64,000 nucleotides of DNA from IMG/VR virus record IMGVR_UViG_3300049255_000405; one strand, given 5' to 3'. Of this stretch, positions 5,133-41,113 are shown piece by piece. This stretch comes from a virus. Position numbers and translations under genes: made by a program. The notes beneath the pieces are model-generated. The model saw nothing but the letters and a program-made list of their open reading frames with translations. It was not told where the DNA came from and did no database searches. The number at the start of each line of letters is the position of its first letter. Position 1 is the stretch's first letter.

Positions 5133-5867
5133 GTGCGAGTCCTCGGTCTCGACCCCAGCCTGACGGCGTACGGCTGGGCTGTACACGACGACGCGGCGAC
5201 GGGGCAGAAGAGGCGCGTGGCGAGCGGCCACGAAGGGACTCTTCCGTCTACCGTGCCGGTCGTGCGGTTCATGCACTTCCGGGCGCTAGTTAGCGACCTG
5301 CTGCGCCGTTACAACGTAGAACTCGTCGGGCTCGAGAGCCCGGCGTATCAGGCGGGTCCTTTCCAGCGGATCCACTTCGGCCTGATGATGTTCTCGCTCG
5401 AGGCGGTCTTCGAGAAGAGGCTCGACCTCGTTCTGTTCGACCCGGCGACGCTCAAGATGCTCGCCAAGGGAGATCCAGCCAAGCACAAGGGAGCCATGTC
5501 CAAGATGGACATGCAGCGCCGAGTGCAGCTGGATACTATGGCCGCGGGCGTCATAGATAACAACGAGGCCGACGCTTACCTGGTCGGCAAGTATGCGGCC
5601 CGGTTCAAGAGCCTGCGTGACGGCACCATCGAACCATCCCAATTGGAACCCTCCGAGAGGTTAGTTTTCATAGAACGGACCCGCCGTGTCAAAACTATGG
5701 CCGGCGTTGTACGTAAACGGGTAGCTCACGCCTTTCGAGAAAATTCTCGGTTCTTCAGCTTCTCTCAGGTCCCGGCGGGCCAAGTGTCCCTTCCCGCCAA
5801 ATCTGTGATAAGGCCGGAGATCTTGGCGTTCCTGGACTCTCTCGAGGCTTCCGAAGACAAGAAATGA
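5133..5867 (+). CDS. ruvC: RuvC-like Holliday junction resolvase
   Basis: N-terminus MRVLGLDPSLTAYGWAV matches the RuvC catalytic start (ILGIDPG..T.GYGV); 244 aa. Confidence 0.7.
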   Translation: MRVLGLDPSLTAYGWAVHDDAATGQKRRVASGHEGTLPSTVPVVRFMHFRALVSDLLRRYNVELVGLESPAYQAGPFQRIHFGLMMFSLEAVFEKRLDLVLFDPATLKMLAKGDPAKHKGAMSKMDMQRRVQLDTMAAGVIDNNEADAYLVGKYAARFKSLRDGTIEPSQLEPSERLVFIERTRRVKTMAGVVRKRVAHAFRENSRFFSFSQVPAGQVSLPAKSVIRPEILAFLDSLEASEDKK

Positions 5868-5877
5868 GGATGGCGAG

Positions 5878-7185: not shown

Positions 7186-8510
7186 AGCTTCACCCAGTCA
7201 AAATCCACATCCAGAACTTCCAGAGCATCGACGATCTGGAAATTGAGGTGCATGGGTTCACATGCATCACCGGACCGTCGAACGTCGGCAAGAGCGCCAT
7301 CGTGCGCGCCACGTCTTCGGCCATCCTCAACAACCCGGTCGTCGGCATGGTGCGCAAAGGCGCGCAGTTCTGCACGGTGGAAATCTCGTCCGAGGGCTGG
7401 GGCTTCAAGTGGGAGAAGAACGACAAGGGAGTCAACCGCGTGTGGCTCCCCGGCAAAGACAAGCCGCTGGACAAGATCGGACAAGTCCAGGTCAAAGAGA
7501 TCTCGCAGATGGGCTTCGGCTCCATCGAAGTCGGTGACGACGAAATCCAGCCCTGGTTCGCGCCGCAGTTCCAATCGAAGGGGTGTGGACCTCTCTTCTT
7601 GCTGGACCAGTCGGGGCCGAGAGTAACCGACTTCCTGTCTGAAGTGTCGCGGCTGACTATCCTTCAGGACGCCATCGTTCTTGCCGCTCGAGGCAAACGC
7701 GGAGCGACAGACCAGGCCAAGAACAAGCACGAAGAGGCGGCCAACCTCAGGACGCTTCTGGCCCGCATCGGCGCCCTCGACACCCTGGAGAAGCTCGGGC
7801 GCGACCTCGAGGAACAGGCATCGAGCATCGAGCAGTACGAAGAGCGCATCACTCTTGGGGAATCACTCATCGCCAAGAGGGTGGAGGCCGAGCGGATTAT
7901 TCGGATACTCGAAAAGGTCGATGACGTAAAGATTCCCAAGGACGTAGCGGCCGAGCCCATTCAGAAGTTCCGCGACGTCTACCGCATCTGCGCTCTGCTC
8001 GAGAAGAGCGCGGCAAAAGTCCGCGACGTCCGGGACGTCTCTAAGGTGAAGGTTCCGGACCTTCTGGACGAAGAGATAGGCAAACTCCGCGAGCTGCAAC
8101 GGTTCGCTCAGCTGGAACCGCTACGCCAGTCGGTCAAGCTCCTGGAAGACCTCACGAAGGTCAAGGTTCCAGACTCCAAGAAACTCCGGGCCGAGATGGA
8201 GAAACTCTCGACCATCGCCGGGTACGCCACGAAGATAGAGGCTGCCCGAGCTTCGGTCGCTCTGCTCGATCAGGATGTACCGACCCCGGAGGATATCGAG
8301 GAGGTCAAGAGGCTTCGGCAACTCCTGGAACTCGACCAGCGCCTCCAAGAGGCGGCAGCCGATGTCATGACCCTCGAAGCCCAGGTCAAGCAGAACGACG
8401 CCGACCTGGAGAAAATCGACAAGGCCATCGCCGCCATTCCGGCTTGCCCAACGTGTCACCGACCGTGGAGCCCCGAGCACACCGGACGGCACAAGAAGCT
8501 GTCGGCCTAG
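7182..8510 (+). CDS. SMC/Rad50/SbcC-like ATPase N-terminal half: head N-lobe plus coiled coil ending in a CxxC hook
   Basis: GTGA overlap with recA-like stop; GPSNVGKSA P-loop after beta-rich N-terminus; long coiled coil; C-terminal IPACPTCHRPW. Confidence 0.6.
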   Translation: MKLHPVKIHIQNFQSIDDLEIEVHGFTCITGPSNVGKSAIVRATSSAILNNPVVGMVRKGAQFCTVEISSEGWGFKWEKNDKGVNRVWLPGKDKPLDKIGQVQVKEISQMGFGSIEVGDDEIQPWFAPQFQSKGCGPLFLLDQSGPRVTDFLSEVSRLTILQDAIVLAARGKRGATDQAKNKHEEAANLRTLLARIGALDTLEKLGRDLEEQASSIEQYEERITLGESLIAKRVEAERIIRILEKVDDVKIPKDVAAEPIQKFRDVYRICALLEKSAAKVRDVRDVSKVKVPDLLDEEIGKLRELQRFAQLEPLRQSVKLLEDLTKVKVPDSKKLRAEMEKLSTIAGYATKIEAARASVALLDQDVPTPEDIEEVKRLRQLLELDQRLQEAAADVMTLEAQVKQNDADLEKIDKAIAAIPACPTCHRPWSPEHTGRHKKLSA

Positions 8511-8998
8511 CGCTTCGTCTTCTCCGACCAGCGCCGCAGGTCGTCCAGGTGGTGGGTGTCGAGGACGACCGTGTCCTCGGCAAAGACCCGGAGACCAACG
8601 TTCGCACCCGAGATTTCGGCGAGCTGCCTGCCGACCTCGATAGCTTCCAGCTCCATTGCCATGAGCACTTGCAGGAACCCGTCCAGGTTGGGCGGGCACG
8701 CGGGAATCTGAATATAGGTCTGCATGGGGTCGGCGCCCATGCCGATGACCTTCATGTTCAGCGCGTACGTGTTCTTGCGCTCGTCCTCGGCATGCTCGTA
8801 CCAGTGCTCGGCGAGGCCGTCGCGGTACGGGCCGAGGAGCCGGTCCGCGAAGTTCCGATACGCCATGTCGATGGCGTACTTGGCCGAAAGGAACTTCTGC
8901 AGGTGCGCGATCACCTGGCCTTCCGGGACTGCGAACTCGCCCTCTTTGGACGGCATCGTGGCCACGCGGCTGGCGATTCGTAGGCGTCGAGCGTCCAT
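8507..8998 (-). CDS. Ferritin-like/Dps-like four-helix-bundle protein (tentative)
   Basis: Internal start of track ORF 8507..9415; helical profile with H/E/D spacing loosely resembling Dps; function uncertain. Confidence 0.35.
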   Translation of the reverse strand: MDARRLRIASRVATMPSKEGEFAVPEGQVIAHLQKFLSAKYAIDMAYRNFADRLLGPYRDGLAEHWYEHAEDERKNTYALNMKVIGMGADPMQTYIQIPACPPNLDGFLQVLMAMELEAIEVGRQLAEISGANVGLRVFAEDTVVLDTHHLDDLRRWSEKTKR

Positions 8999-9037
8999 TC
9001 GATCGCGACGAGGGATAAAAAGTGGTACTATTGCTAA

Positions 9038-9331
9038 GTGAGACGCATCGACTGGGCCTTCGTGACCAAGGACAAGGGGCTCGCACTGATGACCGTCCCG
9101 GACCTCGCCGGCAATGGCGAAATGTATCTTGCTGATTTTCGGGATACGCAAGCGTTGGGTTACAGAGCGACCAAGCACTTCGTCGGACTTTCGAAGACTC
9201 GAGGACTCCGACTCGGCGGCCACCCATTGCGGATGATCGATGGGGTCTGGTATATCACCGAGGACACTCAGACGGGCGTCCAGGATCTTCAAGTTTCTGA
9301 TGAAGCGTTCTGCCTGCAACCCATAAGGTGA
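9038..9331 (+). CDS. Hypothetical protein
   Basis: Track ORF; lies antisense to the implausible N-terminal extension of the - strand ORF. Confidence 0.3.
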   Translation: MRRIDWAFVTKDKGLALMTVPDLAGNGEMYLADFRDTQALGYRATKHFVGLSKTRGLRLGGHPLRMIDGVWYITEDTQTGVQDLQVSDEAFCLQPIR

Positions 9332-9360
9332 GTCATTGTTTATGCGGGAGCACGAGAGAG

Positions 9361-9831
9361 ATGGCAAACGAGATTGACGGTCTCCACCTTGTCGTAGACG
9401 GACTGGTGGAGTCACCCAAGAAGGTCTTCAGCGAGAAGAACCTCCGGGCGCTGCTTCTTCAACTGGTCAAAGACCTCAAGATGCAGCTCATCTTCGGTCC
9501 CGTCTTTCACGAGGTCGAGATCGAACCGTCTCGGCTGACCGGCGACGTGTTCCAGGACGAGGGCGGTATCTCGGGATTCTGCATGATCGGGACGAGCCAC
9601 ATCTCGATTCACGTGTGGCCGCTCCGAAAGCACTTCTCGATGGACGTGTTCTCCTGCAAGCAGTTCGACAGGGAGCTTGCCCGAGAGACCATCGAAAAGA
9701 TGCTCGACCCCACCCAGGCTTCCTACGTCGCTGTTCAGAGGCGGCAGGGTGGGTTTGTGACCGAGCAGGAGCCCGAATCGGCTACGTACGCCCGTCCGGT
9801 GCACGAGCAATCCGTCGCTGCGGCCCCGTGA
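9361..9831 (+). CDS. speH: S-adenosylmethionine decarboxylase proenzyme, small pyruvoyl-dependent SpeH/SpeD type
   Basis: GLHLVVDG...GISGFCMIGTSHISIHVWP...MDVFSCKQFD aligns with SpeH (GRHLV...[20 protein letters not shown]...IDLFTCG). Confidence 0.8.
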   Translation: MANEIDGLHLVVDGLVESPKKVFSEKNLRALLLQLVKDLKMQLIFGPVFHEVEIEPSRLTGDVFQDEGGISGFCMIGTSHISIHVWPLRKHFSMDVFSCKQFDRELARETIEKMLDPTQASYVAVQRRQGGFVTEQEPESATYARPVHEQSVAAAP

Positions 9832-11331: not shown

Positions 11332-11946
11332 TTACGCCGCCAGTGCGCGCAGGCCCTCACGCAGCAGCGAGTGAAGGTCCTCGGACCGCGTACGGTCGCC
11401 CAGCTCCGCAACGAACTTGCGGACCTCGGTCTTCTTGAAGCCAAGTCCCACGAGGGCTGAGGTCAGCTTGTCGGACTGATCCTCGCCGTCGACCTGCGGC
11501 AGGACCGGGGACTCGACGGCAACCGTGGTCTCCGGCTGCATGCCGGCGAACACGTCGTGCGGGGCCGTCTGCACGGCGCGCAGCTTGAGCAGCGCCACCT
11601 GGCGATCCTCGGGTGACAGTGCGTTCTTGAAGCATTCGGCCGCGACTCCGTGCAGCCGGTCGACGTCGGCGATGTCGATCATGAAGTCCACGAACGGGAC
11701 CTCCTGAGTCCGATCCGAACGGGTCCCGACATTGCGGTAATCGCGGACCACCTGCAGAAGCTCGCAGTTGTCCGAGACTCGGCCCTGCTCCACGAGCAGG
11801 TGCTCGATGCACAGCACCGCCCACGGGTTGGTGGCCTCGACTGACAGGAGCCCCTCGCCGAGCGCGAACAGGAACAGTGCCCTCTGCGTCCCGAACGACG
11901 GGTGGCCCTGCGGGAGAATCTGCTCGAACGCTTCCTGGAGTTCCAT
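11332..11946 (-). CDS. Hypothetical protein with RuvA domain III-like (UBA-like) C-terminus
   Basis: C-terminal LTSALVGLGFKKTEVRKFVAELG...LLREGLRALA resembles RuvA domain III (ALVALGYK..EA...V..I.....LIREAL); N-terminus is not RuvA-like. Confidence 0.5.
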   Translation of the reverse strand: MELQEAFEQILPQGHPSFGTQRALFLFALGEGLLSVEATNPWAVLCIEHLLVEQGRVSDNCELLQVVRDYRNVGTRSDRTQEVPFVDFMIDIADVDRLHGVAAECFKNALSPEDRQVALLKLRAVQTAPHDVFAGMQPETTVAVESPVLPQVDGEDQSDKLTSALVGLGFKKTEVRKFVAELGDRTRSEDLHSLLREGLRALAA

Positions 11947-12672: not shown

Positions 12673-13374
12673 ATGCGCATCCTGATTACTGGGTTCGACC
12701 CGCAGTGGGGCATCAAGAAGACCCCTTCCGGGGAAGTGGCCAAGTTGTGGGCCTCGGGCGATATTCAGGTGCCCGGAATCGAGACGCATGCCATTGTGCT
12801 GCCGCAGATCTTCGGCAAGAGCGCCGAGATCGCCTGCGCCGAGATCCAGACGTTCGACCCGCAGGCGGTACTGATGTTCGGCGCCACAATGCACAACGAC
12901 CCCGTGCGCCTCGAGCGCTTCGCTATCAATTGCGAAGCGTCAGTGATGGGTGACAACACTCGCATTCCAGTCGTGCCCGACCGCAACATCGTCCAGGGCG
13001 GACCTGCCGCCTACGAGTCCACTCTGCCCGTGTACTGGCTGATGGACCACCTCAACGCCCAGGGCATCGACTGCAAGGTCTCGTATCACGCCGGGACGCA
13101 CACGTGCAACTCTCTCATGTACAACGTGCTGCACTTCCTGGCAAGCAAGCCGCACCCGATGCCTGTCATCGCGGGCTTCATTCACGTACCGTTTCCTAAC
13201 GAATTCGGGGTGATTGAAGACTCGCTATGGACGACGGCAACGTTCGAGGGGATAGTGCAAGCCTCAGTTGGCTTGGTGCAGAAGGTACGGGACTGGTACC
13301 AAGACAAGTACGGACCCGTGCCGATCAACACTTCTGCTCCATCGAATACTTCGACCACGAAGGCGAAAAAGTAA
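12673..13374 (+). CDS. pcp: Pyroglutamyl-peptidase I (pyrrolidone-carboxylate peptidase, C15)
   Basis: MRILITGFDP...QGGPAAYEST...VSYHAGTHTCNSLMY...GFIHVPF aligns along the whole Pcp length with the Glu/Cys/His triad. Confidence 0.9.
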   Translation: MRILITGFDPQWGIKKTPSGEVAKLWASGDIQVPGIETHAIVLPQIFGKSAEIACAEIQTFDPQAVLMFGATMHNDPVRLERFAINCEASVMGDNTRIPVVPDRNIVQGGPAAYESTLPVYWLMDHLNAQGIDCKVSYHAGTHTCNSLMYNVLHFLASKPHPMPVIAGFIHVPFPNEFGVIEDSLWTTATFEGIVQASVGLVQKVRDWYQDKYGPVPINTSAPSNTSTTKAKK

Positions 13375-13489: not shown

Positions 13490-14113
13490 ATGAAGGAGCC
13501 GAGAGACTGGACCAACGTCATCGACGCTATCTCCGGAGACGTGCGTCGGTTGAGCTACGTCGTGCGCTACAGTAGCATTCCGATAAGCGTTCCGGAGAAC
13601 GTCGCCGAGCACTCGTACTGGGTGGCTCTCTTCGCGGCCGTCATACACAAGACGCTGCATCCCGGAGACTACGAAGGCGTTGGGCCTGTAGTCTTGGGCG
13701 CCATTCTGCACGACACGGCCGAATGCGTGACCGGCGATCTGGTGCGCACATTCAAATACTCTTCCGACAAGCTCCGTCAGGCCATCGACGAGGCCGAGCA
13801 GGTGGCGGTGGCCAAGTTCCCGTCGCCCATCTTGAACGTGTACGATTTGCAGCAGCAGATTCAGTTCAAGAAGAAGGACTACGTCAAGCAGGTCGTCAAA
13901 GCGGCCGACTTCATGAGCCTCATGCAGTACATGGTCCGAGAAGTCCGTCGCGGCAATCGCGAGATCATCAATCCGTTCTACCTCCGCATGGAGGAGGACC
14001 TGAGCCAAATGCGCCGCATCTTGGCCGAGCAGCAGGACACGGAGTGGGGACAGCTCGAGAGCTTGTACCGTGACATGAACAATCACGCCAGAGCGGCTAG
14101 GATGGGCGGATGA
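13490..14113 (+). CDS. HD-domain phosphohydrolase, YfbR-like 5'-deoxynucleotidase
   Basis: VAEHSYWVALFA...ILHDTAECVTGDL motif; internal ATG 13490 of track ORF 13268..14113. Confidence 0.8.
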   Translation: MKEPRDWTNVIDAISGDVRRLSYVVRYSSIPISVPENVAEHSYWVALFAAVIHKTLHPGDYEGVGPVVLGAILHDTAECVTGDLVRTFKYSSDKLRQAIDEAEQVAVAKFPSPILNVYDLQQQIQFKKKDYVKQVVKAADFMSLMQYMVREVRRGNREIINPFYLRMEEDLSQMRRILAEQQDTEWGQLESLYRDMNNHARAARMGG

Positions 14114-14643
14114 ACGGGAACATCGAGACCAAGAGCGAGATCCGCGCCAGAATAGACGAGCTGCAAAAGCTCCGCGAGATGTTCTGGAGCAGCAAGACTG
14201 CTATCCTTGTCGAGGACCAGATCGACAAGCGCCTGCAGGAGCTGCACCGTGATCTCTCCTCGGCCGAAGAAGACCTTTCGTCCTCCATCATCCGTTCCCA
14301 CAAGGCCATCTGCAAGGCCAAGCAGATGGACGAGAAAGCGGCGTACGGCAACGATCCCGCGGTCTATTACACCCTCGGCATCTGCGGCGAAGCCGGAGAG
14401 ATGGCCAATGCCATCGTCAAGGCGCAGCGCAACGGCGCAGACCAAGCGAAGGTGCTCGAGGCCATAAAGGGAGAGCTGCCCGATGTGGTCATTTATTCGT
14501 ACGTTCTTGCGTACGTTCTGGACATCGATCTTTCGAAGCTTGTCAACGAGAAGGTCGAAGTCGTCATCGACCGAGCTAACAAGGGTTACTATGGACGCCC
14601 CCTATCGCACCCCAGCGGAAGTTCCGGAACAACCGGCACCTAA
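14110..14643 (+). CDS. mazG: MazG-like nucleoside triphosphate pyrophosphohydrolase
   Basis: ATGA overlap with the HD gene; LGICGEAGEMANAIVK EExxE core typical of MazG family. Confidence 0.75.
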   Translation: MNGNIETKSEIRARIDELQKLREMFWSSKTAILVEDQIDKRLQELHRDLSSAEEDLSSSIIRSHKAICKAKQMDEKAAYGNDPAVYYTLGICGEAGEMANAIVKAQRNGADQAKVLEAIKGELPDVVIYSYVLAYVLDIDLSKLVNEKVEVVIDRANKGYYGRPLSHPSGSSGTTGT

Positions 14644-15162: not shown

Positions 15163-15669
15163 CTACTGCCCGCGCGGTCTGCCCGTGATGCTCCCGTCGA
15201 GGTTCCCGAAGAACTGCTTGTAGACGGGCAGCGTATTGCCGTTGATGCGACGAGTGGCCACCGCGTCCGAATCGAGCGGGTCCTGGATGAGCGACGACTG
15301 GTTGGCGAGCGCCACGAGATCCACGTCGTTCGTGATGCGCAGAAGGTCTTTCTTGGCGTCCGGGTTGCGGACGAGAACCGTGTAGACCTCTCCGAACGTC
15401 AGCTCGTCGAGGATGCAGCGACCGACTCCCTGCGTGAATCCTGGCGGAGGCGGAGTGAACCAGACGTTGGGTGTCTGGATGTCGCCCGAACACGTCGTGC
15501 AGCAGTTCTTGTCCGGGTTGACCATGTTGTGCATCTGCAGGCGACCCTGGCCACAGATGCACGGACGACGCTGGCAGGCGCAAGGAGGCGCCGGCGGACA
15601 GGGCGGGAGGCGGTTTCCGACGACCGGACCGAAGCACCGACAGGGGTTGCAGTTGCACGAGCAAGTCAT
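15163..15669 (-). CDS. Cys-rich protein with metallothionein-like N-terminus, translationally coupled to the CN-hydrolase
   Basis: ATGA overlap with the nitrilase stop; MTCSCNCNPCRCFGP...PPCPPAPPCACQRRPCICGQG...NCCTTCSG. Confidence 0.55.
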   Translation of the reverse strand: MTCSCNCNPCRCFGPVVGNRLPPCPPAPPCACQRRPCICGQGRLQMHNMVNPDKNCCTTCSGDIQTPNVWFTPPPPGFTQGVGRCILDELTFGEVYTVLVRNPDAKKDLLRITNDVDLVALANQSSLIQDPLDSDAVATRRINGNTLPVYKQFFGNLDGSITGRPRGQ

Positions 15670-16445
15670 TGGGCACCCGTAGTGGCGGTCACGACGCAGT
15701 CTTTGCTGAACTCCACGCCGCCGGTGTGGCACGTCCAGTCAGGTTCGATGATGATGGATCCGCCCTGACCGAATTCACCCTTGAAGCCGTGCGAGCCAAG
15801 CTCTTCCCCCCACCGGTTGGCGATGATGAGGGTGCACTTCTCGTCGGTGGCAAAGTCCATCCACGACGTCGACGGGTAGCCTCCCTTGCCCCAGTTCACG
15901 CTCGCGGCTACGAGGTCGAGCTTCTGGCCGCTGAATAGTGGAATGCTCTTCGCGGCCACGCGAGGAATGTTCTGCGGGATCTTGTTACGCAGATCCCGGC
16001 ACACGACGATAGAAGTCGATCCGAAATCGGTCTCGACCACAGGAGCGCTCGCGATACCCGGCGTGGCCCACAGAAAGTCGTTGCCCCAAAGGTTGACTTT
16101 GCGGTAGCTCGTCAGAAGCTTGCCGTCCGGACCAACCAAGGAGGCCGAGTTGTAGAGGTGGGTTCCATCGGTCTCGACGTAGCCCCAAGAGACGTACGCC
16201 TTCAGCTCGAGAGCGACTCCCCGCATGAATCGGAAGGTCGGTCCGTCCGAAGCCTCACAGACCCGGGATGCCTCGTCCTTGTTCAGGAAAGAGTACCCAG
16301 TGAAGCAAAGCTCCGGGAAGGCGATGAACTGCGACCCGAGCTGGGCCGCTTGATGGATGAGAGACTCCACCCGGCGGTAGTTGTTGCCCACCTCGGCCAT
16401 ACTGGCGGCCAAACGCGGGCGGAACTGCACAGCCGACAGAATCAC
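15666..16445 (-). CDS. Carbon-nitrogen hydrolase (nitrilase superfamily) protein
   Basis: AVQF N-terminus; FPELCFTGY (Glu), YRKVNLWG (Lys), VVCRDLR (Cys) catalytic-triad pattern. Confidence 0.8.
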   Translation of the reverse strand: MILSAVQFRPRLAASMAEVGNNYRRVESLIHQAAQLGSQFIAFPELCFTGYSFLNKDEASRVCEASDGPTFRFMRGVALELKAYVSWGYVETDGTHLYNSASLVGPDGKLLTSYRKVNLWGNDFLWATPGIASAPVVETDFGSTSIVVCRDLRNKIPQNIPRVAAKSIPLFSGQKLDLVAASVNWGKGGYPSTSWMDFATDEKCTLIIANRWGEELGSHGFKGEFGQGGSIIIEPDWTCHTGGVEFSKDCVVTATTGAQ

Positions 16446-17873: not shown

Positions 17874-18581
17874 ATGAAGACGCAGACCAAGACCGAAATC
17901 CGCAACAACACGGCCAAGGCCACCAAGTTGCTGCGGGGCATCGACAACGAGGCGGCAGCGATCGCCAAGGACCAGGCGAAGCTCAACCAGCGCGTCGAGA
18001 ACGTGAAGAAGAGCGTGACCGTGGTCGCGTCCCTGCTCGGCGGCATCTCGAATACGGCCCTGGCGGCTCCCGTGGCTCCGGCCAAGCCCGCTCCGGCTGC
18101 CAAGAAGACGGCGGCGAAGCCCGCCAAGCCGGCCAAGCCCGCGAAGAAGGCGGCGGCCAAGCTCGCGAAGGCGGCGGCCAAGAAGGCAGCCAAGACGGCC
18201 AAGAAGGCAGCGGCCAAGGCAGCCCCGGCGAAGAAGGCGGCGAAGCCGGCGGTCGCCGCGAAGCCGGGCGAGCGTCCGCCGCTCAAGTCCCTCATCAACG
18301 GCACGCTCGACGCCGTGTCCAACGAGTGGACCCCCGCGGCCGAGATCTACAAGCAGGTGTGCGCCAAGGCCGGCTACTTCTCGCGCCAGTCGCTCTACAA
18401 CGCGCTCAAGGACGAGAAGTCGTACGAGAAGCAGGGCGAGGGCGCTGCGGCGAAGTTCCGCCGGGTCGCGGGAGCCTCGGCTTCGGCCAAGGCCGCTCCG
18501 GCGACCAAGACAACCGACGAGGAGGCCGACAAGTTCGTCGAGAAGTCGACGACCAACCCGGCCACCGCGGCGGCGACCTGA
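17874..18581 (+). CDS. Histone H1-like / AlgP-like Lys-Ala-Pro repeat DNA-binding protein
   Basis: GGAGGA RBS; central AKPAPAAKKTAAKPAKPAKPAKKAAAKLAKAAAKKAAK... repeats flanked by structured ends. Confidence 0.65.
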   Translation: MKTQTKTEIRNNTAKATKLLRGIDNEAAAIAKDQAKLNQRVENVKKSVTVVASLLGGISNTALAAPVAPAKPAPAAKKTAAKPAKPAKPAKKAAAKLAKAAAKKAAKTAKKAAAKAAPAKKAAKPAVAAKPGERPPLKSLINGTLDAVSNEWTPAAEIYKQVCAKAGYFSRQSLYNALKDEKSYEKQGEGAAAKFRRVAGASASAKAAPATKTTDEEADKFVEKSTTNPATAAAT

Positions 18582-18585
18582 GACT

Positions 18586-18660
18586 CGGGAACTGGAGTTC
18601 CCACCAGGCTAATAACCTGGGGCTTCGCAGCCATCGCAGGTTCGATTCCTGCCGGTTCGC
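18586..18660 (+). other. tRNA-like cloverleaf element (possible tRNA pseudogene, tRNA-like ncRNA or terminator cluster)
   Basis: Canonical T-arm GCAGG-TTCGATT-CCTGC, anticodon-like arm CCAGG-CTAATAA-CCTGG, D-like arm GGGA-ACTGGAGT-TCCC with U8/A14/GG, extra hairpin GGCT-TCGC-AGCC; no base-paired acceptor stem. Confidence 0.3.
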
Positions 18661-18756
18661 CGGAAGGCGAACTGCACGAGATGCTCTTCTGCTCGGCTTC
18701 TAAACACGAGGCCGAGCGAAGGCATACTTCGTAAAGCTCGAACCGCGTTACGTAAC

Positions 18757-21022: not shown

Positions 21023-21694
21023 TCAGAGCGACGCAGGGACCGCACTGCGCAGAAGATTCTGAACCTGCGCGCGGATGTCGCGAATGGTCTTGCTCGAGAC
21101 CTTGCGACCGCCCCACGAAAGGGCTTCACGAATGACGTCGGGGTTGGCCCCGGAACGAGCGGCGCGGAGATAGCGCGCGATTTCCCACATGCCCTGCTTG
21201 CGCAGCGTGGCCTCGACCTCTTCCATGTGCTCGGTGAGAGAGTCGGTGGCCTGGGGATCGGGCGCGGCGACGTCGATGGTGTCGAGCATCGTGCGACTGT
21301 CGTCCGAGCTGTGCGGGGCGTCGATGGAATCGCGCTCCTTGTCGTAGCGGCGCTTGCGGTGCACGAGGTTAATGCACACGTTGTTGGCCACCATGTAGAC
21401 GTAGTGGCCGAAGCTGGATTTGCGCGGGTCGTGCGCCGACCGCGTGTAGTTCTTGTGGATGATGGCGACGTAGACCTCTTGGATCAACTCCTCCATCGGC
21501 ACGTCTTCCACCTTGAAGAACTTGTGCACGATGCGGATGATGTCCTTCTCCTTCGCGACGACGTCGACCCCGAGAGGAGTCTTGCGATCGTCATCGGCGA
21601 GGCGAGGCCAAGGTAGCCTATCGGGCGTCTTCTTGAGGGACTTTCCAGGAACTTGAATGGTCTTTGACCGTTGGCCACCGCTGACAACGCCCAT
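21023..21694 (-). CDS. Sigma-70 family (ECF-like) RNA polymerase sigma factor
   Basis: Region 2-like ELIQEVYVAIIHKNYTRS...FGHYVYMVANNVCINLVHRKRRYDKE and region 4-like C-terminus; GGAGG 8 nt upstream of ATG 21694; the remaining N-terminal half of the 485 aa track ORF looks non-coding. Confidence 0.7.
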   Translation of the reverse strand: MGVVSGGQRSKTIQVPGKSLKKTPDRLPWPRLADDDRKTPLGVDVVAKEKDIIRIVHKFFKVEDVPMEELIQEVYVAIIHKNYTRSAHDPRKSSFGHYVYMVANNVCINLVHRKRRYDKERDSIDAPHSSDDSRTMLDTIDVAAPDPQATDSLTEHMEEVEATLRKQGMWEIARYLRAARSGANPDVIREALSWGGRKVSSKTIRDIRAQVQNLLRSAVPASL

Positions 21695-21792
21695 GTTCGC
21701 GACCTCCGAAATGCGAAATGCGGAAGGCGTTAACCCCCGCCGATCTATCGCCTGTCCGAGCGCACTTTTCGGACGATCGTTGCAGTTTACCA

Positions 21793-21804
21793 CGCCAATT
21801 GGCG
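21793..21804. promoter_or_regulatory. Perfect 12-bp palindrome CGCCAATTGGCG in the divergent intergenic region, candidate operator
   Basis: Seen directly; about 35 bp upstream of ATG 21839 and about 100 bp upstream of the sigma gene start. Confidence 0.3.
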
Positions 21805-21838
21805 GCGTGCAAGCTGTTTTGTAAGGTCCAAGTATCCT

Positions 21839-22438
21839 ATGGGAACCGACGAGAAAGCCGACTACCTGCGCGAATGCATGTCCGACCCGGCGCTCGTGAA
21901 CCAGCCAATCCCAATCGACCAGTTTAGCCGTGCGTTCTGCGTGGTGTGTGGATACAAGCCCTGCGTTCGAAGCCGGGCCAACACCATGGTTTTTACGGAA
22001 CGAGTGGCTACCTGGCAACCTCGGCTGTTCACGAATGTCCCGAGAGCGGACGACAACGACCCGAACTATGCCCGGATACGGGCGAAGAACTTCCAGAGCG
22101 TGGACGAGCCTCTGGTGGTCAATACTCAAGCGGTCGCAGCTCCCGCGCCCACTCAGGCGCCAGCTCCGCAACCGCCGGACCCGCCGGTACATTCCACACC
22201 CGATCGACCTACGGAATCTCCTGTTCAGCAGGTTCAGACACCGCCGGCGCCCGTCCCCTTGGTCGCACAGCCTGCTCCTATGACGCAGGCCGCTAGCGTT
22301 AGCGCACCGCATCAGGAACCGACGCTCGATAATACTCCATTCGCCGGTGGGATTGTGCTGCCAGGCAAACCAGTCGACAAGAAAGAAGACAAATTCGTGG
22401 AGCCCGGCTCCACCTTCACTTTCGGCGACGATGACTGA
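21839..22438 (+). CDS. Hypothetical protein with Pro/Ala-rich linker
   Basis: Track ORF. Confidence 0.5.
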   Translation: MGTDEKADYLRECMSDPALVNQPIPIDQFSRAFCVVCGYKPCVRSRANTMVFTERVATWQPRLFTNVPRADDNDPNYARIRAKNFQSVDEPLVVNTQAVAAPAPTQAPAPQPPDPPVHSTPDRPTESPVQQVQTPPAPVPLVAQPAPMTQAASVSAPHQEPTLDNTPFAGGIVLPGKPVDKKEDKFVEPGSTFTFGDDD

Positions 22439-23297
22439 CAAGAAAGAAGGACCGCCGACCTGGGGTGAGGACATTTTCACCCTGGTGACCGCCCGCCAGT
22501 TGGGCTCGCAGCAGCTCGTCGAGCATGCCGAAGCTCAAATTGAGCGCCGCTACAGGCTCGAGATGCGCGAGAAGTTCCAGCGCGACCCGCGCGTCCGGCA
22601 GGCGCTGATAGAGTCGGCCGAGTGCTTGCTATCCGAAGGGACGTACGACTCCGTCCGCGGCCTGATGGTCGATGTGCTCCGCGCCGGCACCGAAGAAGTC
22701 TTCAACAGGATTCTGCACGAGCTGCTCGAAGAACTCGACGTGATGCACAAGCGCGAGCCTTCGGCGTATCTCGTAAGCCATCAGGACGGCAAAGTCCTGA
22801 TGCCGATCACGGACAAAGACGTCTACACGCCTCCTCCTTATGTTGGAGAGGACGGCATCACTCGGCCTGCGAAGCCGATCCTGCATCCGGCCATCTCAGC
22901 GCCGCTCACAATGCTGGCATTCGAGCAGGGTCGGAAGAACGAGGCCATCACTCGCGCCGTTGCCGCCGGCGCTCCGGCTGCAGTCGAACACCTCGTCATG
23001 GGGCCGGACGCCATACTCGAGCGCGCGAGGGTGCTCTTGCGAACTCAAGGGGTGACAGTTGAGCCATTAGAGAATGGCACCCCAGCAACTATCGAGGTCG
23101 GCAGGGAGCATGTCGACGACATGCTTCAAGCTCCGAATTACAATTTCCACCGCTCGCAAATGTACGGCTCACTTCTCGCCAAGAAGGTGCTGAATCTCTT
23201 GCGCGGGCAGGGCCGCTGCGACTTGAAGTCCGCGATCCTGAAGAAGGGCTCCAAGGAGCAGTGGTACGAAATCACGCTCGACTGGGCAGCGACTTAG
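22431..23297 (+). CDS. Hypothetical protein (288 aa)
   Basis: ATGACTGA overlap with the preceding gene; internal ATG of track ORF 22347..23297. Confidence 0.55.
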   Translation: MTDKKEGPPTWGEDIFTLVTARQLGSQQLVEHAEAQIERRYRLEMREKFQRDPRVRQALIESAECLLSEGTYDSVRGLMVDVLRAGTEEVFNRILHELLEELDVMHKREPSAYLVSHQDGKVLMPITDKDVYTPPPYVGEDGITRPAKPILHPAISAPLTMLAFEQGRKNEAITRAVAAGAPAAVEHLVMGPDAILERARVLLRTQGVTVEPLENGTPATIEVGREHVDDMLQAPNYNFHRSQMYGSLLAKKVLNLLRGQGRCDLKSAILKKGSKEQWYEITLDWAAT

Positions 23298-23835
23298 CAC
23301 GTTTCGATTCCCAGGCCGCGTAGTCCTCGAGTACGCACTGCAGGACGCACGCGAGCGCCCACTGGAATTCGGGCACGCCTGCGACGTGCACTTGCGCCTG
23401 GACGCCCTCTATGACGTCGAGGATGTCCGCGATGCGGCACCGCCACCGGAAGTCGACATAGACCCCGAGAGGTAGCATCGGGATGATGTCCGAGGGCTCC
23501 TTGATGAACGTCGAGAGCCGCTCGAAGATGTTGAGGAGCTGCTGCGTCCAGGCGCGCACCGCCACATTGACCTGGTCGGCACCGGACTGCGTGCCGCCGA
23601 ACACGTTCATCCGCTCCTGGGTTACTTGCGGTAGCCATACCGCGATCGGTTGATGGATGCGCGGATGATCGATGTAACCCGCTGCGAGTAGTTGCGGGAC
23701 AACCGTCTGAAAAAGGCAGCACGGCATCGTGATACCCAGCGCTGCTGTGCCAGAAGGAAAGTCGCGAGCGGTGAACGTGACTTGGCCATGTTCGAAGAAT
23801 CGTGTCTCGTCCCGAGGTTCAGGCTTTGTGTCCAT
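23272..23835 (-). CDS. Hypothetical protein
   Basis: Internal ATG 23835, 13 nt downstream of the dcd stop. Confidence 0.45.
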   Translation of the reverse strand: MDTKPEPRDETRFFEHGQVTFTARDFPSGTAALGITMPCCLFQTVVPQLLAAGYIDHPRIHQPIAVWLPQVTQERMNVFGGTQSGADQVNVAVRAWTQQLLNIFERLSTFIKEPSDIIPMLPLGVYVDFRWRCRIADILDVIEGVQAQVHVAGVPEFQWALACVLQCVLEDYAAWESKRAKSLPSRA

Positions 23836-24529
23836 CGAACATCTTCCAAGATCGAGACGGAACCGGGCCCTCGGCCAGCTCGCCCTTGTAGTTGCCTTTT
23901 TCTTTGTAGCTGTCGACCTCACCCACGATGGTGTGGAAGCGGATCTGGCAGAACCTCATGCCCGGGTAGACGATGAGGGGCTGCAGCACTGCGACCTCGA
24001 GCGTGTACTGCCCATCGAATCCGGGGTCGCCGTATCCAGCCGTCACGTGCACGAAGCAGAAAAGACGACCGATGGATGACTTGCCGTCGATGATGGGCAC
24101 ATACCGGTCGGTGCTGATGCGCTCCTGCGTGTGCATCAGATAGCCCACGCCCGGCATGAGGACGAATCCTTCATCCTGCATGGTGAACCGGGCGACCTCA
24201 TTCTCCTTGGCAGCATCGAGACATCCGCGCTTGAGTAGCGAGAACTTGGCTGCGGCGTCTTCTTTGGGTCGCACCTTCCAGCCCGGGAGACCCGTGACGA
24301 GATTCTTCAGCTCTGTACCATCGAACTCCTCGTAGTATGGGTCCGGGGAGAAGTTCGGCACGGTCGTGTCGGTATAGACGGCGATCTCGCGCCCGAGCGT
24401 CAGATCGTAGCTCGCGGGATTGAGCCTCTTGAGGCACTCAGGGTCCTTGGCGTCGAAGGGGGTGATTTTGATGTCTCCCTCTTGGAGGGCTCGCAGGATA
24501 GAGCGGCCCGACAGAATTCCTGATTGCAT
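23819..24529 (-). CDS. dcd: dCTP deaminase (dUTPase superfamily)
   Basis: LSGRSILRALQEG.I.I.P...ASYDLTLG...VHVTAGYGDPGFDGQYTLEV...PGMRFCQIRF aligns with Dcd. Confidence 0.85.
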   Translation of the reverse strand: MQSGILSGRSILRALQEGDIKITPFDAKDPECLKRLNPASYDLTLGREIAVYTDTTVPNFSPDPYYEEFDGTELKNLVTGLPGWKVRPKEDAAAKFSLLKRGCLDAAKENEVARFTMQDEGFVLMPGVGYLMHTQERISTDRYVPIIDGKSSIGRLFCFVHVTAGYGDPGFDGQYTLEVAVLQPLIVYPGMRFCQIRFHTIVGEVDSYKEKGNYKGELAEGPVPSRSWKMFDGHKA

Positions 24530-38217: not shown

Positions 38218-38658
38218 TCAGTGCTTGGAAGCGCCGCCGCAGTTCCAGCCCATTGCCTGCACGTCAGCCGAGGTCTTGGCACCGAGCAGATCGTTGCAGG
38301 TGAGGCCCTGCTGGGTCTTGGGGTTGCGGATGACGCGGTTGGCCTGCGCGAGCGACAGAACCTTGGCGCAATCCGCCTGCTGGGCGCAGCCCATGGCGGC
38401 CATCTGAGCGCATGCCTTGGCGCACGGATCCGTGGGAGCCGGAGGAGCTGCATCCTGCGCCGGAGTCGGAGCGGGAGCTGCATCGACCGCAGGCGTCGGC
38501 GTGGGGGCCGAATCCATGGTCGGGACAGGCGGCGGAGGGCTTCCGTCGGGTCCTCCGTCCGGTGCCGGTGGGTTGGGCGGGGTCGGAGGGCACCCCGCCA
38601 TGCCGAGCGTCGACACGGCCAGGAAGAGCCCGAGAAGGGGGATCGCTGTCTTCTTCAT
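38218..38658 (-). CDS. Proline-rich lipoprotein (possible outer-membrane spanin-like component)
   Basis: MKKTAIPLLGLFLAVSTLGMAGC signal with lipobox; PPNPPAPDGGPDGSPPPPVP; C-terminal Cys pairs. Confidence 0.55.
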   Translation of the reverse strand: MKKTAIPLLGLFLAVSTLGMAGCPPTPPNPPAPDGGPDGSPPPPVPTMDSAPTPTPAVDAAPAPTPAQDAAPPAPTDPCAKACAQMAAMGCAQQADCAKVLSLAQANRVIRNPKTQQGLTCNDLLGAKTSADVQAMGWNCGGASKH

Positions 38659-39527
38659 CACGCAGCCGCCTTCTGGACCTGGACGTCCATCACGTAAAGC
38701 TCCCAGGCCGCCTTGACCCACGCCTCGGAAACGAGGCAGCGACCGTTGTCACACCAGCCGGTACCCCAGCTGTTGGTGAGGATGAAGGTGCGGGTTCCGT
38801 CCGCGTTGGTGGTGTAGCCCGACAGGTAGATGGCGTGGCCACCGCCGTTCGGGTCGTTCGTGTTCGGAGGCTGCGCCACCTGGCCCGGCTGCAGCTGCTC
38901 GAACGCCGTGTCGACGAACGCCGCGACGTAGACCGGGAAACCGGCGGCGAGAGCCGCAGCCACCTGATCCGAAACGTTCGCTGCACTCGGGTCGATGGCG
39001 TACTCGCCCGTGACGATGGTGGTGCCAGCTGCCTGGAGCTGGTTGGCGTCCACCTCGTTGTTGACGTTCGCCGGCTGAGCCGTCGTGTCAGCATCCGACC
39101 AGATGTCGGAGTTGCGGCCGTCCGGAGTCGGGCCCTGCATCGGAGCAACGCCGAACTGCGCGCATGCCGTGAACACGTCCGCGGGCTCGGCGCCCGAGTC
39201 GGTGAGAAGCGGCAGGGGCTGACCCGCCGGCGTCTGCGCCGCGCGCTCGATTCCTCGAGTAGCGGCGTACGTCTCGCGCGGCGAAGGCTCGAACCCGATC
39301 TGGATGCCCGCCTTGCGGCAAGCTGTGGAGGTGCTGCCCGACAGCGAGTGCGCCGTGCAGGAGCCCGTCTGGCCCTGATCGAGCCGCGGGGGCTCCCACT
39401 GGGACAGGTCGACGGACGCCGGAACGGTGGCCGCAAGGAGTGCGGCAATCGCCGGGTGGGTGGCCGCCGCTTTCTTGGAGGCGACCTTCGACGGATGACT
39501 GCGCTTTGCACCCTTTGCGAACGGCAT
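38658..39527 (-). CDS. Papain-like (C1 family) cysteine peptidase, secreted
   Basis: QGQTGSCTAHS (catalytic Cys context), GGHAIYLSGY (His), NSWGTGWCDNG (Asn/Trp); weak N-terminal signal. Confidence 0.7.
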   Translation of the reverse strand: MPFAKGAKRSHPSKVASKKAAATHPAIAALLAATVPASVDLSQWEPPRLDQGQTGSCTAHSLSGSTSTACRKAGIQIGFEPSPRETYAATRGIERAAQTPAGQPLPLLTDSGAEPADVFTACAQFGVAPMQGPTPDGRNSDIWSDADTTAQPANVNNEVDANQLQAAGTTIVTGEYAIDPSAANVSDQVAAALAAGFPVYVAAFVDTAFEQLQPGQVAQPPNTNDPNGGGHAIYLSGYTTNADGTRTFILTNSWGTGWCDNGRCLVSEAWVKAAWELYVMDVQVQKAAA

Positions 39528-39950
39528 TTACTTGGCTCCCGCTGCCTTCTGGGCTCGGACGTTGGACTGCAGCGTCTTGAAGTTCGCGAGGAGAGAGACC
39601 GACACGCAATTGGGCAGGCCGTACGCCGGCTTGCCGGAACCACATTTCATGTCGCTCGCCGCCACGGCCGCGCCAGCTTCCTGCGGCTGGTCGTAGTAAT
39701 TGATGATGCTGGCGATGATCTGCTCGACATCAGCCAGGGTCGAGCCGATGCACGCGCCGGTGATCTTGAGCGGGTCGGTCACGCCTTGGAACATCTCGGC
39801 GATGACGCAGCTGGCGATCTGGCCAACGTCCGTCGTCACCTGGCCGCTATTGCTGGCCCACCAGCCACAGCCAGTCTGCGTTGCTGTGGTGCCGCCGATA
39901 GCGACACCCATACCCACGATGATTGCGATTGGAGCCAGTTTGCGAATCAC
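39528..39950 (-). CDS. N-terminal-TM / secreted Cys-containing protein (possible inner-membrane spanin-like)
   Basis: MIRKLAPIAIIVGMGVAIGG TM; TAA/ATG junction with the peptidase gene. Confidence 0.45.
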   Translation of the reverse strand: MIRKLAPIAIIVGMGVAIGGTTATQTGCGWWASNSGQVTTDVGQIASCVIAEMFQGVTDPLKITGACIGSTLADVEQIIASIINYYDQPQEAGAAVAASDMKCGSGKPAYGLPNCVSVSLLANFKTLQSNVRAQKAAGAK

Positions 39951-40399
39951 TTGCCACCTCCATCAGCCGCCGGCGCAGCAGGTGCCGGGGTGGGCGTTTT
40001 GCCCTGGGAAGACTTGTGCGCGATGAGGTGGGCATGGCACGCAGCGCCCGCGCCAGCTGACGACAGCGCCATGACGCCAGCGATGATGGCGTTCAGAATG
40101 GACGAGCCGTTGACACCGGAAGCGCCCTGCAGCGACAGACCGAAGGCCGTCAGGAATGAACCAGCCAGAGTCAGGTAGGGGATCCACGCCTTAGGCGTGG
40201 TCGCGACCCCGAAGAGACTGCCAGTGTTGACGGCCTGTCCAATGAAGCCCGCGAGCAGAGCGACGATGGTCACGATCGCCGTCTGTGTCGAAATCGTGAC
40301 AGCCGCAGCGGGGGCCGCAGTCTGCGCGAAAGCGAGGCTCGCGAAGGACATGACGACGCCGAAAGTGAGGGCGAACGTCAGGGTAGATCGGAACTTCAT
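39947..40399 (-). CDS. Multi-TM membrane protein with signal peptide (holin-like candidate)
   Basis: MKFRSTLTFALTFGVVMSFASLAFAQ plus 3 hydrophobic helices; ATGA overlap with the downstream gene. Confidence 0.45.
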   Translation of the reverse strand: MKFRSTLTFALTFGVVMSFASLAFAQTAAPAAAVTISTQTAIVTIVALLAGFIGQAVNTGSLFGVATTPKAWIPYLTLAGSFLTAFGLSLQGASGVNGSSILNAIIAGVMALSSAGAGAACHAHLIAHKSSQGKTPTPAPAAPAADGGGK

Positions 40400-40504: not shown

Positions 40505-41113
40505 ATGAAGTCGCTGAAGGTTGTCTCGGTCAGTCTGGTGTTCGTTGCAGCGCTCGTGGGCTGCACTTCCGACGCGTTCACGTCGGGCGACCTGCCGGAC
40601 TCGGGAACCGACTCCGGAGACCCGACCGAAGGTTCGGTCGGAAACGACTCCGGCGGCGACAGCGCCAAGGTGGGAGATCCCGATACTGGCGTGGATGCGG
40701 GCCCAGGGATCGACACCGGCACGACGGACACCGGGACGCCCGACTCCGGCACCGACACGGGGACGACAGACTCCGGGACAGTGGATTCCGGCACCGACAC
40801 GGGGACGACAGACTCCGGCGCCGACGCCGCCGACGCCGCCGACGCGAGCTGTTTCACGGTCCCCTCTGGCTCCACCGGAGTCACCTGCGACTCCTGCATG
40901 AAGTCGTCGCCGTGCGCCAGTCAGCGAGACATCTGCATCGCTCAGTGCGGTCCCTCGGGATGCGCCGACGCCTGGGAGGGTTTCCTCGCCTGCATCGACC
41001 TGAACCCGGATGCCGGCGGGACTCTCTGCGCCAGCACCTGGCTCTCGGACAGCCCCGTGGAGGCCAACCTAGCCTCCTGCGGCAACACCTTCTGCAGCAG
41101 CCAGTGTCAGTAG
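40505..41113 (+). CDS. Lipoprotein with (D/T)(S/T)GT tandem repeats and Cys-rich C-terminal domain, on the opposite strand to its neighbours (moron-like)
   Basis: GGAGG RBS; MKSLKVVSVSLVFVAALVGC lipobox; 12 Cys in the last 80 aa. Confidence 0.65.
   Translation: MKSLKVVSVSLVFVAALVGCTSDAFTSGDLPDSGTDSGDPTEGSVGNDSGGDSAKVGDPDTGVDAGPGIDTGTTDTGTPDSGTDTGTTDSGTVDSGTDTGTTDSGADAADAADASCFTVPSGSTGVTCDSCMKSSPCASQRDICIAQCGPSGCADAWEGFLACIDLNPDAGGTLCASTWLSDSPVEANLASCGNTFCSSQCQ
40696..40848 (+). repeat. Tandem ~45-nt coding repeat (TCCGGCACCGACACGGGGACGACAGACTCCGG twice) plus GCCGACGCC triplets
   Basis: Near-identical copies at 40744-40776 and 40787-40818. Confidence 0.6.

Follow-up and report, generated by a model that had tools for sequence, protein, structure and literature searches.

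The 64,000-nucleotide stretch of viral DNA analysed here (IMG/VR record IMGVR_UViG_3300049255_000405; hereafter the window) carries four consecutive genes on its minus strand, designated A, B, C and D in gene order (Table 1), that are probably the central part of a lysis cassette dependent on a holin. The third of them, gene C, encodes a papain-family (C1) cysteine peptidase that would serve as an endolysin-type enzyme, together with envelope partners encoded by its neighbors. The source of the window is an uncultured jumbo phage with a genome of approximately 240 kb, because a 240,015-bp contig carries proteins identical to B and D, a 242-kb contig of the Joint Genome Institute (lineage L001) encodes a peptidase 97% identical to C in the same gene order, and tblastn searches with the DNA polymerase found no cultured phage above 27% identity. 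The window thus represents about a quarter of the genome. No relatives were found in a scan of 185,579 species genomes for prophages and hosts.

The four genes are closely spaced. The stop codon of gene A overlaps the start codon of gene B by 4 nt (GTGA) and genes C and D overlap by 1 nt (TGATG), whereas genes B and C abut (TAA followed directly by ATG) without a strict overlap. Thus, an earlier sequence-only reading of this region, which described four consecutive overlapping minus-strand genes, was accurate as to the four open reading frames (ORFs), their strand and their coordinates, but not as to the B/C junction. A purine-rich motif resembling a ribosome-binding site precedes every start codon (GCGAGG for gene A), and the G+C content at the third codon position in the called frames is 0.75–0.84 (0.75 for gene A) in a window with an overall G+C content of approximately 60%. 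A 167-amino acid ORF listed for gene D represents an upstream GTG extension of the frame that begins at ATG. A promoter and terminator scan gave a signal at background level. Upstream of the cassette lie genes for tail-fiber-like proteins of 1288 and 1616 amino acids and structural genes without a Pfam match, and downstream, on the same strand and after a gap of 23 nt, lie genes for an SNF2 helicase, DnaB, a primase, a major-vault-protein-like protein and DNA polymerase A. Gene C is therefore placed as is expected of an endolysin gene, namely after the tail-fiber genes and flanked by genes for a multi-transmembrane (TM) protein, a TM-anchored protein and a lipoprotein.

To judge from its sequence and predicted fold, C is a genuine papain-family (C1) enzyme with an intact catalytic set. 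It matches Pfam PF00112 (Peptidase_C1) with 36.1 bits (gathering score 20.7, E 9e-9), a match that is also precomputed for many of its homologs, and it matches PHROG 16701 (“peptidase”). The motifs QGQTGSC, GGHAIY and NSWG, to which the sequence-only reading had drawn attention, are present and correspond to the Gln/Cys, His and Asn-Ser-Trp elements of papain, giving Gln51, Cys57, His231, Asn252 and Trp254 as the catalytic residues, which align with the active-site motifs of Der p 1 and xylellain. An alignment of 26 sequences with identities down to 27% shows no variation at Q51, C57, H231, S253 and W254, and at least 90% of the sequences have N252. The AlphaFold2 model of C (pLDDT 94.2, pTM 0.92) retrieves xylellain (3OIS) as the first Foldseek match in the PDB (E 6e-14), followed by Der p 1, Legionella Lpg2622 and (pro)cathepsin B; all of the top 50 PDB matches are C1 enzymes, which supports a papain fold, and phmmer aligned xylellain to residues 32–262. 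A CHAP or NlpC/P60 identity was excluded, as neither fold occurs among these 50 matches. A role as a head-maturation or prohead protease was also excluded by the position of the gene, its invariant lipoprotein partner and its C1 family membership. At E<=1e-30, a profile of the C family retrieved 340 clusters formed at 50% identity, and nearly all of the best 150 clusters are 260–320 amino acids long; therefore, C belongs to a sizeable family of stand-alone enzymes.

The designation of C as a secreted, C1A-type protease requires revision. It is a real C1 peptidase, but one of the short xylellain type, which differs from the classical secreted C1A cathepsins and papains: it lacks the signal peptide, the I29 propeptide (no Pfam match in C) and disulfides such as Cys22-Cys63. 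The equivalent of Cys22 in secreted papains is Thr in C (within QGQTGSC), and the remaining Cys residues are not conserved. No N-terminal segment of C exceeds the TM threshold in the hydropathy analysis. The stretch HPAIAALLAATVPA is moderately hydrophobic in the closest relatives only; among 101 homologs, 11 exceed a 19-residue Kyte-Doolittle mean of 1.6 at the N-terminus (a borderline value), and in most members amphipathic sequence takes its place. Residues 1–45 resemble a pro-region, and residues 11–50 are packed on the enzyme body in the AlphaFold2 model with pLDDT values of 95–98. This part of the family carries a conserved basic motif, G-x-K/R-R-S-x-P-x-K ... H-P, at the place where other short bacterial C1 peptidases have YGW..D.PD.RD. 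Thus, both a signal peptide and a signal-arrest-release domain on C were excluded by the alignment, the packing in the model and the small number of hydrophobic homologs, and secretion by a conserved signal peptide is not borne out. The lack of a signal peptide fits an enzyme that folds in the cytoplasm and is released through a holin.

In the xylellain structure described by Leite et al. in 2013, the N-terminal segment reportedly fills the active-site cleft. By analogy, C is probably also latent, being masked by its own N-terminal segment. As a separate observation, the longest possible start of the L014 peptidase gene (5791-6813) adds an N-terminal TM helix (Kyte-Doolittle mean 2.54), which may represent a membrane-tethered variant.

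The gene context of the peptidase was compared in 18 independent lineages, with peptidase identities down to 31%. A lipoprotein gene lies directly 3′ of the peptidase gene in every lineage, and in 17 of them the two genes share 1 or 4 nt at their stop and start codons, the exception being L015 with a 2-nt gap. This arrangement is far beyond chance. All of the lipoproteins have a signal peptide and a lipobox, usually an N-terminus of C-P-P/S, and a Pro-rich linker of 10–55 residues; their Cys-containing domain carries the motif R-(L/V)-I-R-x-P, which is common to a long class and a short class (L013, L014, and L018). Homologs of B are encoded upstream of the peptidase in L001–L005 and L012 (phmmer), and a B-type domain was also recognized by alignment in L006, L008, L009, L016, and L017. 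In eight lineages, one ORF encodes both the B-type domain and a multi-TM holin-like module (Table 1), and the fusion junctions carry a lipobox-like LTGC, VIGC, LVGC, VVGC or AIAC after the last TM helix; such a precursor could be split at the internal lipobox by the lipoprotein-processing pathway. Module swapping is usual for holins. Here, the holin-like modules are swapped even among close relatives, the window and L001 having type A and L002 and L007 having another type. Furthermore, the backbone of L005 carries tail genes like those of gene transfer agents and the siphovirus phiJL001 (DUF2460, Phage_BR0599, and Phage-tail_3), whereas the window lineage is a jumbo phage. The cassette therefore behaves as a mobile module that is carried on differing phage backbones.

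Several further features were observed around these modules. A 396-amino acid protein (P0050) on a 75,893-bp ENA contig joins peptidase and lipoprotein in one ORF; it was not accepted as a natural fusion, as the sequence after the NSW motif diverges from the consensus, pointing to a lost stop codon or a frameshift. The peptidase gene of L010 is immediately preceded by a Cpn10/GroES gene (5698-5988, E 2e-17), which follows a gene for an 88-amino acid protein with two TM segments. Small lipoproteins or secreted proteins with ..CC.. knots recur nearby (L005 7054-7350, L009 6953-7390, L016 6998-7501, and L020 7112-7522). Coiled-coil proteins with one C-terminal TM helix are encoded before the cassette in L005 (6549-7040), L012 (4097-4642), and L027 (phage MMB025; 2753-3103). 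They resemble XhlA-type lysis proteins by eye, and those of L005 and L012 gave weak coiled-coil noise in Pfam scans.

The neighborhood of the peptidase gene also points to lysis. In eight of the 18 lineages, a muramidase is encoded within 6 kb. It is an Rv2525c_GlyHyd-like protein in L005, L008, L009, L018, and L021, with Pfam E-values between 6e-8 and 9e-17, and in L022, where a custom hidden Markov model (HMM) built without the L022 protein detected it (E 1.5e-22) and Pfam gave nothing at E<=0.01; a GH25 protein is encoded in L013 and at a second locus, which is probably L017. Within the same distance, L005, L008, L012, L013, and L022 encode SLT-like proteins, which were assigned by eye, carry a W-x-E-S/T motif and match neither Pfam nor NCBIfam. 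L012 has an SLT-like protein only, and L014 has an unclassified lysozyme-like ORF. Another eight lineages, including the window, show no muralytic candidate within the available DNA. In the approximately 58 ORFs of the window, no lysozyme, amidase, transglycosylase, CHAP, M15 or M23 domain was detected (Pfam E<=0.01), and HMMs of the Rv2525c-like, SLT-like and GH25 proteins of the relatives and of the L014 lysozyme-like protein matched nothing in its six-frame ORFs. Accordingly, the notion that the protease stands in place of a muramidase holds for the 64-kb window but not for the eight related lineages with a muramidase nearby.

A link to endolysins was obtained by tblastn with a distant member of the C family, which retrieved CDS0095 (XXN61434.1) of Alicyclobacillus phage MMB025, annotated as an endolysin. 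This protein comprises a Peptidase_C1 domain (27.9 bits), an Rv2525c_GlyHyd-like domain (E 1e-28) and a PG_binding_1 domain (E 2e-18), and its authors call it, by prediction, an endolysin with peptidase and muramidase activities (PMC13141910). The N-terminal domain aligned with the profile of the C family over 215 columns (hhalign probability 98.9%, E 1e-17). Thus, C matches a catalytic domain of a modular endolysin that is itself predicted. In addition, a relative with 29% identity (P0098) is a fusion of Phage_r1t_holin and Peptidase_C1 (33.3 and 72.1 bits). Among the structural neighbors of C in BFVD are C1 proteins of uncultured phages entered in UniProt as “Peptidoglycan binding-like” and “N-acetylmuramidase”; with weaker E-values, a Gordonia endolysin and Lysin A of a mycobacteriophage also appear. 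All of them are considered here by name only. Because the gene lies in a lysis-type cassette, muramidase genes occur in its neighborhood, the MMB025 domain is homologous and a fusion of r1t holin and C1 exists, the suggestion that C is an unusual endopeptidase endolysin is the best reading of the data.

The properties of the partner proteins are as follows. The description of A, B and D as a signal or multi-TM protein, a protein with an N-terminal TM segment and a Pro-rich lipoprotein with a lipobox agrees with their hydropathy. A has a signal-peptide-like N-terminus (..SLAFA/QTAAP; segment 5–27), hydrophobic segments at approximately 38–60 and 99–120 and a hydrophilic, Pro/Lys-rich C-terminal tail. 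It thus has the shape of a holin, being a small membrane protein with a hydrophilic C-terminus encoded in the cassette of the lytic enzyme, and is regarded as a holin candidate on this basis. Among the relatives, a homolog was found only in L001; BLASTP comparisons with the fused proteins of L006 and L016 were insignificant and involved the signal-like N-terminus only.

B has a single N-terminal hydrophobic segment, the TM segment or signal anchor LAPIAIIVGMGVAIGG, followed by ..TQTG-C28-GWW. The part beyond Cys28 appears to form a helical periplasmic domain with four more Cys residues and a basic tail. B has no Pfam or NCBIfam match, and in PHROGs it gave nothing beyond a weak match to PHROG 3543, a family without an assigned function (E 0.022). 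B resembles an i-spanin in its N-terminal TM segment, its Cys domain appears to be helical, and the lipobox-like Cys after the TM segment departs from the spanin pattern; B may be either an i-spanin-like anchor or a second lipoprotein.

D begins with a 22-residue signal peptide, MKKTAIPLLGLFLAVSTLGMAG, and has the lipobox GMAG/C, which yields a mature form of 124 amino acids with the N-terminus C-P-P. A 55-residue Pro-rich linker (Pro accounts for 17% of the whole protein) leads to a C-terminal domain of approximately 70 amino acids, predicted to be helical, with six Cys residues and the motif NRVIRNP. In the AlphaFold2 model of D alone (pLDDT 60), the linker is disordered and the helical domain is of low confidence. 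D has no Pfam, PHROG or NCBIfam match and no similarity to a known protease inhibitor family. Its lipobox and Pro-rich periplasmic part are those of an o-spanin; however, o-spanins are short and largely unstructured with 0–4 periplasmic Cys residues, and D differs from them in its length, its helical C-terminal domain and its six Cys residues. A survey covering 528 two-component spanins recorded no more than 4 Cys residues in any of 526 o-spanins (PMC6139136). Moreover, the C gene separates the B gene from the D gene in the window and its relatives, which is not the gene architecture of spanins. The proposed topology of holin, i-spanin, endolysin and o-spanin is therefore upheld as a lysis-type cassette around a C1 peptidase, while the spanin labels are at odds with several features of B and D.

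A second Cys-rich lipoprotein is encoded on the plus strand at 40505-41113, between the tail-fiber genes and the cassette. Its LVGC lipobox is accompanied by a low-complexity linker of approximately 95 residues rich in D, S, G and T and by 12 further Cys residues, and the protein matches no family. Analogs are encoded at the same place in L001 (8495-9046) and L002 (8074-9147).

The most likely model for the cassette is as follows. C would be synthesized in the cytoplasm without a signal peptide and kept latent by the segment of approximately 45 N-terminal residues packed on its body. At the end of infection, A would permeabilize the inner membrane, giving C access to the cell wall, where it would cut the peptide part as an endopeptidase, unaided or in concert with a glycosidase from another locus. 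B, with its membrane- or lipid-anchored, disulfide-bonded helical domain, and D, a lipoprotein in which a long Pro-rich tether carries the six-Cys domain, may be dedicated envelope partners, acting either as a non-canonical spanin-like pair for the outer membrane or as an anchor or regulator for the peptidase. A diderm host is plausible, solely on the grounds that the enzymes are single domains without wall-binding modules, the lipoprotein signals are short and the tether is Pro-rich.

Several observations weigh against this model. C1 enzymes hydrolyze L-amino acid bonds in proteins and peptides, and we know of no documented cleavage of peptidoglycan by a member of this family. The muramidases encoded separately in eight lineages mean that C need not be the wall-degrading enzyme, and the negative search of the window covers about a quarter of the genome, with approximately 176 kb lying beyond it. 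A has no Pfam, PHROG or NCBIfam match and belongs to no described holin family. As described above, B and D depart from spanins in several respects. Finally, xylellain-type C1 genes occur without a lysis context in jumbo phages, such as Burkholderia phage FLC9 (gp163) and a 595-kb phage (LR756511.1), in the latter between the genes for CTP synthase and ribonucleotide reductase; therefore, the wider family also has uses other than lysis.

Among the alternatives, the likeliest, although we regard it as improbable, is that C is an accessory envelope protease rather than a peptidoglycan hydrolase, and that the glycan is degraded by a separate muramidase. After triggering of the holin, D would dock C via its Pro-rich tether, perhaps with B fixing the complex to the inner membrane, and the targets would be tethers between the outer membrane and the wall, abundant lipoproteins, OmpA-like proteins or an S-layer, proteolysis of which would complete the last step of lysis. 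The fold matches of C are to protein endopeptidases, C and D are always paired and, in almost all lineages, translationally coupled, the muramidases of eight lineages are encoded by genes of their own, the 55-residue linker of D could span much of the periplasm, and no recognizable canonical spanin pair was seen beside the cassette. By contrast, the MMB025 polypeptide joins the C1 domain to a glycosidase and a peptidoglycan-binding domain, which indicates the wall itself as the target. It is also tempting to speculate, with still less confidence, that B, C and D form a protease-based machine for envelope disruption, in which D, and perhaps B, captures C released by the holin and C cuts the links that hold the outer membrane or a protein layer to the wall. 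With such a machine, lysis would be completed by proteolysis instead of, or in addition to, membrane fusion by spanins.

It is improbable that D is instead a periplasmic inhibitor or immunity partner of C, which either silences the peptidase until it is due or shields infected cells from the peptidase of lysed neighbors or superinfecting phages, a logic comparable to that of T4 Spackle and the gp5 lysozyme, the staphostatin/staphopain operons and the periplasmic immunity lipoproteins of amidase effectors. The one-to-one adjacency of the C and D genes, with overlapping start and stop codons in nearly all lineages, would suit such a pair, as would the compact disulfide-rich domain of D with its R-(L/V)-I-R-x-P loop conserved in both lipoprotein classes, and a number of Cys residues above the maximum recorded for o-spanins. 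On the other hand, C has no signal peptide, so that C and D would occupy separate compartments until the membrane is breached, at which point an inhibitor would oppose lysis; an external enzyme normally does not reach the periplasm of a diderm host; and D matches no known inhibitor family and its model is of low confidence. Least probable of all is that the genes have no role in lysis, C being an effector or a protease that works in the cytoplasm on processing or host takeover and A, B and D unrelated membrane or superinfection-exclusion proteins: the absence of a signal peptide, the FLC9 and LR756511.1 genes without lysis neighbors and the run of the cassette into same-strand replication genes 23 nt before the SNF2 helicase gene would agree with this, but the order of membrane protein, peptidase and lipoprotein is kept across unrelated backbones and next to muramidases, and fusions of C1 domains with a holin or with a glycosidase and a peptidoglycan-binding domain exist.

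The endolysin-type cassette proposed here shares features with several known systems and shows substantial differences to each of them. In MMB025, as in the window, the gene with the homologous N-terminal Peptidase_C1 domain follows the tail-fiber genes, and its protein joins the C1 peptidase with the Rv2525c-like glycosidase that is encoded by a separate neighboring gene in L005, L008, L009, L018, L021, and L022. By contrast, CDS0095 is a polypeptide of 753 amino acids with an immunoglobulin-like spacer and a PG_binding_1 domain, which is typical of phages of monoderm hosts, and it has no lipoprotein partner, whereas C is a stand-alone domain of 289 amino acids with a pro-region-like N-terminus.

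Xylellain from Xylella fastidiosa is the best match of C in both sequence and fold, and Legionella Lpg2622 is likewise a short bacterial C1A peptidase. Xylellain and C share the same catalytic residues and a short N-terminal extension in place of the I29 propeptide. The identity between them is approximately 20%, the motif GxKRSHPxK of C corresponds to YGW..D.PD.RD in xylellain, and xylellain is encoded by a chromosomal bacterial gene without a lysis context. The acquisition of xylellain-type C1A genes by myo- and siphoviruses has been described (Kordis and Turk, 2023; PMC10380794).

The lysis genes of lambda (S, R, and Rz/Rz1) resemble genes A–D in that a gene for a small multi-TM protein comes first, the enzyme has no signal peptide, the genes are coupled and lie after the tail genes, and two of the products are a periplasmic protein anchored by a TM segment and a Pro-rich lipoprotein with periplasmic Cys. 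However, the enzymes of lambda-type cassettes are lysozymes, transglycosylases or amidases rather than C1 peptidases, and their i- and o-spanin genes are embedded, overlapped or adjacent, whereas the enzyme gene lies between B and D here. Rz1 of lambda comprises 40 amino acids, in contrast to the 124 amino acids of mature D with its six Cys residues and predicted folded domain, and B differs from lambda-type i-spanins in its lipobox-like motif and its frequent fusion to a holin-like module.

A further parallel is the split or modular Lysin A of actinobacteriophages, whose two lytic activities are those of a clan-CA cysteine peptidase and a glycoside hydrolase, in some phages encoded by separate genes, located 3′ of the tail genes. 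Mycobacteriophage Lysin A has a papain-like (C39-like) N5 domain, and Gordonia phage BetterKatz encodes a protease (gp29) and a glycoside hydrolase (gp30) (PMC3314691, PMC4982276). The structural similarity between C and the Lysin A models is weak (BFVD E 2e-4 to 1e-2), and no sequence similarity was found by tblastn in 50,697 phage records; the Lysin A domains are C39-like or NlpC/P60-like rather than Pfam C1. Moreover, the hosts are mycolata, and LysB takes the place of the lipoprotein partners. The CHAP and NlpC/P60 domains are papain-fold Cys-His enzymes with which phages cut the peptides of peptidoglycan, indicating that clan CA can work in the wall compartment, although they belong to families other than that of C, in which the oxyanion residue is the Gln specific to C1 and an Asn-Ser-Trp motif is present. 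Baculovirus V-CATH is a viral C1A protease that, as a latent proenzyme, breaks down a barrier late in infection for the release of progeny, but it is of the cathepsin L/F type with an I29 propeptide, takes a secretory route and acts on insect tissue in an unrelated setting, and its similarity to C is limited to a BFVD E-value of 1.6e-4.

The remainder of the window contains further genes of interest. A gene on the minus strand at 30642-33326, within the replication module, encodes the 894-amino acid major-vault-protein-like protein with MVP_shoulder (E 1e-25) and Vault_3 (E 7e-11) domains, and it is kept in L001 (828 amino acids) and L002 (879 amino acids). The SNF2 helicase of L001 (11367-14483) comprises 1038 amino acids, compared with 690 amino acids in the window, and gives a faint LAGLIDADG_3 match; the extra length, which the window lacks, is probably an intein or a homing-endonuclease insertion. 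Host-like genes are densely packed at positions 1093-28815 (Table 1).

Table 1. Cassette genes, holin-like fusions in related lineages and host-like genes of the window
Feature	Sequence	Coordinates	Strand	Remarks
Gene A	window	39947-40399	-	150 aa; membrane protein, holin candidate; first cassette gene
Gene B	window	39528-39950	-	140 aa, GTG start; TM/signal-anchor Cys-domain protein
Gene C	window	38658-39527	-	289 aa, 870-bp gene; papain-family (C1) cysteine peptidase, short xylellain type
Gene D	window	38218-38658	-	146 aa from ATG; Pro-rich lipoprotein
Holin-like module and B-type domain	L002	9228-10001		single ORF
Holin-like module and B-type domain	L005	7347-8000		single ORF
Holin-like module and B-type domain	L006	7318-8004		single ORF
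Holin-like module and B-type domain	L008	5477-5995		single ORF
Holin-like module and B-type domain	L009	5378-5998		single ORF
Holin-like module and B-type domain	L012	4691-5266		single ORF
Holin-like module and B-type domain	L016	2918-3919		single ORF
Holin-like module and B-type domain	L017	5240-5992		single ORF
FtsH-like M41 fragment	window	1093-1797		
RecA	window	5878-7185		
Ferritin-like	window	8507-9415		
RuvA_C-domain protein	window	11332-11946		
Pyroglutamyl peptidase C15	window	12673-13374		
MazG-like	window	14110-14643		
CN hydrolase	window	15666-16445		
tRNA-Ile	window	18574-18661		anticodon AAT
Sigma-70 region 2 protein	window	21023-22480		
dCTP deaminase	window	23819-24529		
DnaJ	window	27703-28815		full-length

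Literature searches yielded no paper that assigns Pfam Peptidase_C1 to phage lysis or links it to lysis experimentally. What appears to be new is the conserved module of a stand-alone C1 peptidase and a lipoprotein, in many cases with a holin-like or TM-Cys protein, and its link to modular endolysins. The lysis enzymes of phages are a main source of enzybiotics and a model for the dismantling of cell envelopes. If C cuts peptidoglycan, the C1 peptidases would constitute a new catalytic family of endolysins; if it cuts envelope proteins, the cassette would represent a new way to breach the outer layers of the cell. In either case, genes A–D provide a concrete four-gene system that can be cloned.

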